From assembly GCF_030013205.1 (NCBI RefSeq), contig NZ_CP122648.1: a stretch of 64,000 nt of DNA; one strand, given 5' to 3'. Positions 30,902 through 32,447 of this stretch are shown piece by piece; the stretch's first letter is position 1, and every line of letters starts with the position of its first letter. Both the position numbers and the translations under genes were made by a program. The notes below the pieces were generated by a model. It worked only from the letters and a program-made list of their open reading frames with translations. It was not told the origin of the DNA and made no database searches. This DNA is from Escherichia coli. Its GTDB lineage: Bacteria; Pseudomonadota; Gammaproteobacteria; Enterobacterales; Enterobacteriaceae.

Positions 30902-31001
30902 TGGAGCACCTGTGTTGTTCTGAGGTGAGCATATCACCTCTGTTCAGGTGGCCAAATTCAGTAAACCACTTCACCACTTCAGAGCAGACGAGACAAAAAG
31001 A

Positions 31002-31574
31002 ATGGTTGACGCATCAGCTCAACCCCATATAGTTGTAACACTTGAGCCAAACCCTTGGGCCGCTTTTTACTTTGATATTAACATTGCTAATACAGGGAAC
31101 GCACCTGCCTATAATGTTGAGGTTGTGTTTGATCCTCCACTAGTAAATGCGGAGCATAGAGAAAAAAGTGAGATTCCGTTTAGTAAGGTAAGCGTGTTAA
31201 AAAATGGGCAATCACTTACCAGCAATCTCTGTAAGTATGAACAAATCAAAGATCAAATTTATAATATTAATATAAGCTGGGCAAGCAAACCTAAATCAAA
31301 CGATAGAGAAACAAATGAATATGTGTATGACATGGCGACATTTGAAGGAATAAGTTATCTAGGAGCGAGAAGCCCATTGACGCAAATTGCAGAACAAATT
31401 AAAGGTATAAGAGAGGATTGGAAACCTATTGCACAAGGAGCTAAAAAAGTAAAAGCAGACGTATATACTTCAAGCGATAGAAACGAAGAACGCACGTATC
31501 TGCAAGAGCAACACGATTTGGCAATAAAAAGGAGAGATGAGAAAAGAGAAAAAAGATTAGAGTCTGGTGAATAA
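31002..31574 (+). CDS. Hypothetical protein, probably 5'-truncated by IS911
   Basis: The track ORF 30948-31574 starts at a GTG inside the IS911 terminus. The first non-IS Met is at 31002. The sequence (…VVTLEPNPWAAFYFDINIANTGNAPAYNVEVVFDPP…) looks like a beta-sandwich followed by a charged helical tail. I do not recognise a family. Confidence 0.4.
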   Translation: MVDASAQPHIVVTLEPNPWAAFYFDINIANTGNAPAYNVEVVFDPPLVNAEHREKSEIPFSKVSVLKNGQSLTSNLCKYEQIKDQIYNINISWASKPKSNDRETNEYVYDMATFEGISYLGARSPLTQIAEQIKGIREDWKPIAQGAKKVKADVYTSSDRNEERTYLQEQHDLAIKRRDEKREKRLESGE

Positions 31575-31583
31575 TTTTAAAGG

Positions 31584-31604
31584 GAGTGGGTAACTAACCC
31601 ACTC
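31584..31604. terminator. Hairpin between convergent genes (putative bidirectional terminator)
   Basis: GAGTGGGT-aacta-ACCCACTC forms an 8-bp perfect stem. It lies between the stops at 31574 (+) and 31623 (-). Confidence 0.5.
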
Positions 31605-31622
31605 GTAACTATAAACCTGTAA

Positions 31623-32447
31623 TTAATCACTTATTTTTGACAACAGATAATTACTGAACGCACTGCAAGTGACTAACATAAATTTAGCTTCAGCTAAGGT
31701 AGGATTTACATCTTCTTCTGTTAGCGCATGACGTATTCCACCCTGATCACTTGTATAACCATAGAGCTGACTAAAAGCGCCTTTCATTGCAGAGTGTATA
31801 TATCCTTTTTCCTCTATAGCTTTAAGACAAGCCCCCAAGGTTCCTTTATCATTGCCCGTGATTTTCCTGCATAAAGATTCAATTGCAGAGATAGACTCTT
31901 TAATCGAGTTTCTGTAGTCTGGCTGCTCTCTATCCGTCATTAGTTGTAACGCCCTTTCGAAATGGCTACGCGATGAATCAGTGCCATTATCAACTGCGTT
32001 CTGAACACTTTCAATTTCGTTATCATTTGAAATAGGAGTAATACAACCATTTATTATGGTATAACCAACGCCATGCTTTTTAAAGATGGAATTGAGATGC
32101 TTCGATAGATTAATATATGAATTAGTTCTCTCAATGATGAACTCAATTAAATCATATACCAAATACCATGCTTCCCCATATATATAATCTCGGATAGCAG
32201 TCAGCAACGTCTTATCACTTTTGTATCCACTTTCATAACGAGGAATATTATCCGCAGGTTGATTTAGATAATATATCCACACAGACTGCGCACATTTTGT
32301 TGCTGTAGCAGTTTGACGATTGTTAGTCCAAAGGAAAAGATATAAGCAATTCCACAATGCCATGCGTGTATCAGAATTAAGATCATTCAGCTGGACATGC
32401 TCTCTAACGTCAACATGACCATACCTCACAGAAAATGGCTTTATCAT
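31623..32447 (-). CDS. AbiJ-like abortive infection protein (AbiJ N-terminal domain plus C-terminal HEPN/Abi_C-like domain)
   Basis: 274-aa ORF. The N terminus reads MIKPFSVRYGHVDVREHVQLNDLNSDTRMALWNCLY. The C terminus reads ...SIKESISAIESLCRKITGN...AFSQLYGYTSDQGGIRHA...AKFMLVTCSAFSNYLL, an R-x4-H-type motif in an Abi_C-like context. The family assignment is from memory. Confidence 0.6.
   Translation of the reverse strand: MIKPFSVRYGHVDVREHVQLNDLNSDTRMALWNCLYLFLWTNNRQTATATKCAQSVWIYYLNQPADNIPRYESGYKSDKTLLTAIRDYIYGEAWYLVYDLIEFIIERTNSYINLSKHLNSIFKKHGVGYTIINGCITPISNDNEIESVQNAVDNGTDSSRSHFERALQLMTDREQPDYRNSIKESISAIESLCRKITGNDKGTLGACLKAIEEKGYIHSAMKGAFSQLYGYTSDQGGIRHALTEEDVNPTLAEAKFMLVTCSAFSNYLLSKISD

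Follow-up and report, generated by a model that had tools for sequence, protein, structure and literature searches.

The stretch of DNA considered here (the window) comprises 64,000 nt of the Escherichia coli contig NZ_CP122648.1 (NCBI RefSeq assembly GCF_030013205.1), and contains, at the end of an island associated with the tRNA gene leuX, two convergent open reading frames (ORFs) that lie 48 nt apart. ORF-A (31623..32447, minus strand) is an intact gene of 274 aa whose product carries an AbiJ-type N-terminal domain, and ORF-B, on the plus strand, is represented by a truncated copy (Delta-ORF-B, 30984..31574) that abuts the left end of the insertion sequence (IS) IS911. In the original prediction, made from the sequence by itself, the feature was said to start at 30974, which is the first base past the IS911 tip (30973), and the 274-aa ORF, the convergent ORF running to 31574 and the peptides quoted from ORF-A are all present as described. 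It was also proposed there that ORF-A encodes an abortive-infection ribonuclease (RNase), that both genes might form a sensor/effector or toxin/antitoxin pair, and that the IS911 event may have unbalanced it. The analysis presented here leads to a picture in which ORF-A probably acts on its own and ORF-B is not its dedicated partner.

ORF-A is delimited by the ORF list and identified by Pfam, PADLOC and RefSeq. Its AbiJ-NTD4 domain, placed by the Pfam match and by the secondary structure of an AlphaFold2 (AF2) model, extends over residues 4-153 (31989..32438, minus strand) and is mostly helical with a small beta-hairpin. The Pfam family AbiJ_NTD4 (PF18863) matches with an E value of 5.8e-27 and 95.5 bits (cut-off 34) over profile positions 2-151 of 152, and the same match is found in all 34 aligned homologues, so that the AbiJ-type N-terminal domain (NTD) predicted originally is confirmed. 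Practically the whole protein (residues 3-272) aligns with positions 8-281 of the 285 of the PADLOC PDC-S32 model PDLC04997 (E 5.6e-104), and a second PDC-S32 model, PDLC04996, matches with an E value of 1e-86. ORF-A is identical to RefSeq WP_000594911.1, named there "AbiJ-NTD4 domain-containing protein"; 4437 homologues were found, and about 8.5% of complete E. coli genomes carry the gene, including Nissle 1917, ATCC 25922, the type strain ATCC 11775, 042 and O26:H11.

The rest of the protein (residues ~155-274; 31626..31985, minus strand) is the best-conserved part of the family, with a mean identity to the homologues of 64.4% vs 35.6% for the NTD, and it adopts the four-helix HEPN fold, being the presumed RNase effector. 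Invariant within this domain are R179, N180, S, I, K, E184, S185, H218, Y229, G230, D234, G237, I238, R239 and H240, and the polar cluster within them (E184, S185, H218, D234, R239 and H240) is strictly invariant in the 34 homologues, whose identity goes down to 39%. The only Arg/His pair of ORF-A is the adjacent R239-H240, encoded by the codons CGT CAT (31728..31733, minus strand) at the start of the penultimate helix (AF2 helix 238-244) and retained in 34 of 34 homologues in the alignment. This pair seems to lie roughly at the position of the canonical HEPN motif, to which it might be catalytically equivalent, and it could constitute a non-canonical HEPN active site. The R-x4-H motif that had been put forward as the target for mutagenesis does not occur in the protein, and the residues to be mutated are therefore corrected to R239/H240.

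A model in which an AbiJ-NTD and a HEPN domain work as sensor and effector has already been published (Anantharaman et al. 2013, PMC3710099); it gives the NTD a presumed role in sensing or auto-inhibition, and the same work lists a conserved catalytic motif for the HEPN family of AbiJ. Along these lines, ORF-A is probably an autonomous, single-protein abortive-infection factor of the AbiJ type, in which an NTD4 sensor releases a HEPN RNase centred on R239-H240. The variable NTD4 domain would detect a phage component and keep the effector restrained; infection would then allow the conserved HEPN domain at the C terminus, which probably dimerises, to cut RNA and to arrest the infected cell. The catalytic centre would likely be formed by R239-H240 and the invariant RNSIKES helix, instead of a canonical R-x4-6-H motif.

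Several results weigh against this reading. A C-terminal Abi_C/HEPN profile, which had been expected in the original prediction, does not match significantly when the corresponding search is run: Abi_C (PF14355) gives no match to ORF-A, whole or as isolated C-terminal domain, at E<=10, and no significant Abi_C/HEPN match from Pfam or NCBIfam was obtained with the whole protein, its isolated C-terminal domain or the 34 homologues. The closest signals are sub-threshold DUF4145 matches in 9/34 homologues (best E 0.0021, for one isolated C-terminal domain) and a precomputed PF14355 match carried by two homologues. A hidden Markov model (HMM) profile of the C-terminal domain, compared with all the sequences in the PDB, retrieved only noise (Integrator subunit 4, E 1.4), and the HEPN assignment is thus one of modelled fold. 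The regular expression R.{4,6}H, run over the whole protein, finds nothing, so that the canonical HEPN motif R-x4-6-H is absent. Finally, a literature search yielded no experimental report of defence or RNase activity for PDC-S32, AbiJ-NTD4-type proteins or WP_000594911.

Could ORF-A, then, be something other than an active RNase? The HEPN-like domain might be a module that binds or regulates without catalysing, as in MtlR, sacsin and the HEPN partners of MNT, with ORF-A acting by another mechanism or not being a defence gene at all. The missing R-x4-6-H motif and the absence of a significant profile match are in favour of this, as is the replacement of R179 and N180 in gp38, a homologue from the Rhizobium phage RHEph01; in addition, PDC-S32 is a computational candidate, the PDCs being single-gene candidates obtained by "guilt-by-embedding" and for the most part unvalidated (PMC12988326). 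However, the polar cluster stays invariant in the 34 homologues, gp38 retains the R239-H240 pair, a conserved catalytic motif is listed for the AbiJ HEPN family, as mentioned above, and the integrase-adjacent slots, prophage morons, plasmids and phages in which the homologues reside are typical sites of defence genes. A non-catalytic ORF-A is therefore considered unlikely, and an RNase effector is retained as the preferred reading.

ORF-B belongs to the family phrog_11802, named DUF8453 in newer PGAP versions, with 1964 cluster representatives at E<=1e-3, mostly of 180-250 aa. The intact homologues (225-266 aa, from Enterobacter, Klebsiella, Yersinia, Pectobacterium, Agrobacterium and other genera) open with a hydrophobic helix (…ISAFAALLTAVATFFLWRVTR…), and the residues of this transmembrane (TM) anchor are nearly invariant among them. 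The 234-aa protein from Enterobacter roggenkampii matches positions 1-228 of the 230 of phrog_11802 with an E value of 1.3e-115, and its AF2 model (predicted local distance difference test, pLDDT, 85.8) shows a helix over residues 2-49, seven strands between 54 and 154, and helices at 169-188 and 201-231, in agreement with the beta-sandwich predicted originally. The product of these genes is thus probably anchored to the membrane by its N terminus, with a cytoplasmic Ig-like beta-sandwich followed by two C-terminal helices. Intact homologues scanned with PADLOC gave no match, and a literature search on DUF8453, P2-EC53 (a prophage with an intact family member, see below) and the WP accessions returned nothing relevant.

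The copy in the window lacks the TM helix of this architecture of ~230 aa. According to the homologue alignment, in which 15 intact homologues of 228-246 aa were used, and to tblastn, Delta-ORF-B corresponds to the 3' 196 codons of the gene: homology to the intact relatives starts at 30983/30984, equivalent to residue 39 of the E. roggenkampii protein, whose residues 39-234 match 30984-31571 of the window. Residues 1-38 have no tblastn match anywhere in the window, nor beside the K-12 IS911B (flank yjhE). Since the homology begins at residue 39 and the 38 preceding codons are missing elsewhere in the window, the N-terminal loss at IS911 is real, as had been predicted; since they are also absent from the flank of the K-12 element, a deletion or rearrangement, rather than a simple insertion, must have taken place. 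With these 38 codons, the TM anchor, the start codon and the promoter were lost. The frame that remains has been given different starts: the mechanical ORF (30948..31574, plus strand; 208 aa) begins at a GTG (30948) inside IS911, and PGAP/RefSeq uses the ATG at 31002 (CDS, or coding sequence, 31002-31574; 190 aa, WP_000227281.1).

As for the IS element itself, its left end, comprising the left inverted repeat (IRL) and the start of orfA (30640..30973, minus strand), was recognised by its identity to K-12 and by the junction, and is interrupted by IS30 (about 29418-30639). The tip was placed at 30973 because the stretch 29418-30973 is 99.4% identical to a K-12 stretch annotated as IS911B split by IS30D. 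Between the tip and Delta-ORF-B there is a filler of 9 nt (30974-30982), 8 nt of which repeat the IS tip, and this extra sequence may be the scar of an aberrant transposition or of a deletion. In other terms, the junction (region 30965-30982) contains an 8-bp tandem repeat (30965-30981) in which the last 8 nt of IS911 (CCACTTCA) occur twice; the K-12 IS911B stops after the first copy.

The same IS911 junction is found in 460 of the 464 E. coli genomes that have the ORF-B stub, with the AbiJ gene intact there, and all the E. coli copies of ORF-B are at least 99.6% identical; virtually all E. coli carriers inherited the IS911-associated rearrangement of ORF-B from a common ancestor. The stub that was left has most likely lost its function. 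What points in the opposite direction is its dN/dS along the E. coli branch (0.10), which reveals no pseudogene decay, although this may merely reflect a recent truncation.

The most evident question about the locus is whether ORF-A and ORF-B are a pair. The reading to be weighed is that of a dedicated two-gene system, in which the membrane-anchored beta-sandwich protein would be the sensor, regulator or antitoxin of the HEPN RNase, and IS911 would have crippled or deregulated the system of E. coli. In its favour, and against the autonomy of ORF-A, the convergent layout is kept in three lineages that have diverged to ~77-80% protein identity: E. coli, E. roggenkampii (whose intact ORF-B and AbiJ are 79.6% and 93.8% identical to the window proteins) and a metagenome contig (77% and 78%, respectively). 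The length of the spacer varies between 47 and 56 nt across the three, and all of them keep the stem of a GC-rich hairpin, GAGTGGGT-AACTA-ACCCACTC, which in the window is located between the convergent stops (31584..31604) and whose loop and flanks differ. Judging from this spacer comparison, the hairpin is likely a bidirectional terminator; a simple terminator scan passed over it because there is no T-run.

Beyond these three lineages, nonetheless, the linkage is not found, and the pairing does not survive the linkage test that had been attached to it. A profile search within +-6 kb of 29 ORF-B loci from GTDB species representatives detected an AbiJ ORF in none of them, and all-vs-all clustering of the ORFs around these loci revealed no conserved neighbour, a serine recombinase being the only gene that recurs (6 loci). 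In the K. michiganensis ORF-B loci, two small unrelated genes occupy the place where AbiJ would be, and the small genes present instead of AbiJ in Klebsiella and Biostraticola were not matched by PADLOC. Looking from the other side, all the AbiJ homologues examined at 41-61% identity, from six genera, are solo genes without ORF-B. Those of ~60% identity (Klebsiella, Enterobacter) sit between an integrase and a resolvase, and those of ~41-44% stand alone in a tail module of a Pectobacterium prophage and in Xanthomonas and Collimonas; AbiJ homologues are also present on plasmids of Enterococcus, Pseudomonas and Leptospira and in phages. In the Pectobacterium case (locus 4001-4855), the AbiJ-NTD4 homologue is a lone moron that separates gpV from gpW, both of them baseplate genes in the tail module of a P2/Mu-like prophage; for a defence gene, this is an unusual site.

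Members of the ORF-B family stand alone as well. An intact one, which bears the annotation "putative lysogenic conversion protein", is the sole ORF in the Z region of the prophage P2-EC53, and another, gp24 of the P2-like phage R18C, is encoded between the tail-fibre-assembly and the tail-sheath genes. We take this location to be the slot of the P2 exclusion gene fun(Z).

Further arguments come from the E. coli locus. In O26:H11 (11368 locus 1690-3360), an IS600 splits the ORF-B stub further and leaves AbiJ intact, a split shared by numerous O26 genomes (at least 19 among the records listed). The reverse situation is found in strains G1/2 (locus 2371-3743), G6/7 and G8, where an IS1 removes the 3' end of AbiJ, that is, the HEPN C terminus. 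That AbiJ persists intact in more than 460 genomes whose ORF-B is truncated or destroyed is incompatible with ORF-B as an essential antitoxin, and nothing in this pattern suggests that the IS event unbalanced a system, as had been surmised. Moreover, along the E. coli branch (30984-32447 of the window vs E. roggenkampii and the metagenome contig), synonymous divergence (dS) is 0.24 for ORF-B vs 0.07 for AbiJ, about a threefold gap; the alleles must therefore have different histories, which would imply, on the basis of this sequence comparison, a recombination breakpoint near the spacer hairpin. Thus, of what would characterize a two-gene module, conserved co-occurrence across diverged genomes is limited to one lineage and one doubtful phage parallel, the convergent orientation leaves no operon for co-transcription, and the presumed toxin gene is found without its partner. 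PADLOC, in turn, models the ORF-A family as a single-gene system. Taken together, a dedicated two-gene system is considered quite improbable: the adjacency of ORF-A and ORF-B is confined to one enterobacterial leuX-island lineage, and the two genes are co-resident cargo and not a dedicated pair.

The aforementioned phage parallel is offered by RHEph01 (locus 85-2121), a lytic T7-like phage with an AbiJ-NTD4/HEPN homologue, gp38 (hhalign probability 99.8%), which is one of only three phage AbiJ homologues. It is annotated with 165 aa, and its open frame reaches about 288 aa; the R-H pair is kept in the motif "GVRHS". What counts against an autonomous ORF-A here is that gp38 is convergent, with one small gene in between, to the TM protein gp40, which resembles ORF-B. 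In particular, gp40 is the third-best match of the ORF-B model in BFVD (Foldseek E 2e-4), among five at E<=1e-3, and it is a two-TM protein whose post-TM segment and "N-x-TG-x-x-A-A" strand resemble those of the ORF-B family. By hhalign, gp40 as a single sequence reaches a probability of 3.8% against the ORF-B family, and its family profile one of 40% (E 3e-4), values that leave homology doubtful; furthermore, the relatives of gp40 occur without AbiJ. The RHEph01 genes are therefore a weak parallel to the pair in the window. Should they nonetheless reflect a recurrent, optional team, formed by an AbiJ-type HEPN protein and a membrane-anchored, DUF8453-like beta-sandwich protein as sensor or modulator (and, as a separate proposal, should the R-H pair be a non-canonical HEPN site), the E. 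coli locus would be a naturally occurring "partner-less" version of it; this combination appears very doubtful to us. Even more improbable seems a scenario in which the truncated ORF-B is still expressed, either from the ATG at 31002 or as a fusion from the GTG at 30948, giving a soluble beta-sandwich with a retained or a new role. The frame is indeed open over 190-208 codons, 100% conserved in hundreds of genomes, and free from decay according to the dN/dS given above; but the native promoter, the start codon and the nearly invariant anchor residues are gone, no convincing promoter was found upstream of Delta-ORF-B, and the IS600 of the O26 lineage disrupts the gene without any effect on its neighbour. 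The near-identity of the E. coli copies is no evidence of selection, because it reflects their recent spread.

If ORF-A is autonomous, why are both genes neighbours? The explanation proposed here is that both lie in the variable cargo slot at the end of the leuX island. Upstream of ORF-A there is a non-coding block (32448..33005, minus strand) that ends in a 25-nt copy of the 3' end of tRNA-Leu (att repeat, 32981-33005). Most of it, a segment of ~490 bp from the att repeat to ~60 nt upstream of AbiJ (32506-32980), is shared, at 96-100% identity, by E. roggenkampii, the metagenome contig and 620 E. coli genomes, whereas the adjacent cargo differs or is only 78-94% identical; when E. coli, E. 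roggenkampii and the contig are compared with one another, the identity of the block is about 98-99%. In about 160 of these 620 E. coli genomes, the end block is accompanied by other cargo instead of AbiJ: in PKF11 (locus 4515-5939), it is followed by a 190-aa hypothetical gene and a DUF3800 protein that matches PADLOC PDC-M04A (E 1.5e-21), and in CFSAN061761 (locus 5039-5953), by an unannotated gene of 304 aa. A serine recombinase is encoded 3' of the alternative cargo in both, together with a helicase in PKF11. Since the end block bears different cargo in other E. coli, the leuX end of the island is a defence-type hotspot in which AbiJ and ORF-B are exchangeable cargo, and the block may represent a conserved end of the island at which recombination is anchored when cargo is swapped. 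The order of the slot would be the conserved end block, then the cargo, and then the serine recombinase and the helicase, with no need of ORF-A and ORF-B for each other; ORF-B would be a separate cargo gene, whose relatives occur alone, also in P2-like phages, in what would be their Z (fun) slot for lysogenic conversion.

Regarding known systems, ORF-A has the two-domain architecture of the AbiJ-family HEPN proteins with AbiJ-NTD4 (prototype CBY_0614; Anantharaman et al. 2013; equivalent to PDC-S32), as well as the full-length PDC-S32 match, and differs from them in a C-terminal domain below the significance of Pfam Abi_C and in the adjacent R-H that replaces R-x4-6-H. AbiJ from Lactococcus lactis (Abi-859), compared here by its description, is likewise a single-protein abortive-infection factor with a predicted C-terminal HEPN domain that, as for ORF-A, only structure prediction brings to light (HHpred E > 0.1; PMC13064643). 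The two differ in N-terminal domain and in host, and escape mutations from the lactococcal AbiJ map to a phage single-stranded DNA-annealing protein. LsoA/RnlA, AbiV, the HEPN-MNT toxins and Csm6, with solved structures, combine R-x4-6-H with a dedicated antitoxin (protein, RNA or AMPylation); unlike them, ORF-A is accompanied neither by a conserved partner gene nor by a repeat array or an Rfam element. As far as ORF-B is concerned, the P2-EC53 Z-region ORF1 and R18C gp24 are ~79% identical to the intact E. roggenkampii protein over 228 residues, and both are intact, with 230 aa and the TM anchor, in contrast to the window copy, which lacks residues 1-38.

The locus itself adds little new, as ORF-A was already annotated in RefSeq and modelled in PADLOC. 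Besides the corrected mutagenesis target, its study indicates that ORF-B should not be cloned as the "partner" of ORF-A, and documents the leuX island end as a slot in which defence candidates are swapped. In addition, DUF8453/phrog_11802, with ~2000 clusters at 50% identity and members in the presumed Z/fun slot of P2, is flagged as a candidate for single-gene phage exclusion.

Some observations concern the sequence upstream of ORF-A. The block between the gene and the att repeat contains no annotated gene, has no Rfam match at E<=1, and shows no excess RNA folding on either strand (z +0.55); likewise, a search near ORF-A for an RNA antitoxin or cis element, as in the type III systems of AbiV and AbiF, found no tandem repeats, Rfam matches or excess folding. 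The idea that these ~560 bp are the remnant of an integrase was rejected, given that tblastn with three island integrases produced no match. A 44-aa ORF (32444-32578, minus strand) shows an ATGA overlap with the start of AbiJ, which suggests translational coupling; due to frame-breaking indels in the metagenome homologue, it is probably not a conserved coding leader.

On the other side of the att repeat, an island of 7.3 kb (33006-40294) extends between two perfect 25-nt direct repeats of the tRNA-Leu 3' end, at 32981-33005 and 40295-40319, the second of which belongs to the tRNA-Leu(CAA) gene leuX proper (40295-40379). It encodes a helix-turn-helix "control protein"-like product (33485-34042), a DUF4062 protein of 281 aa (34745-35590) whose N terminus matches PADLOC PDC-S60 (E 5.8e-27), and a serine recombinase (35604-36233), in addition to a membrane protein and a distal integrase. 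With this content, it looks like a second islet of defence candidates stacked at leuX.

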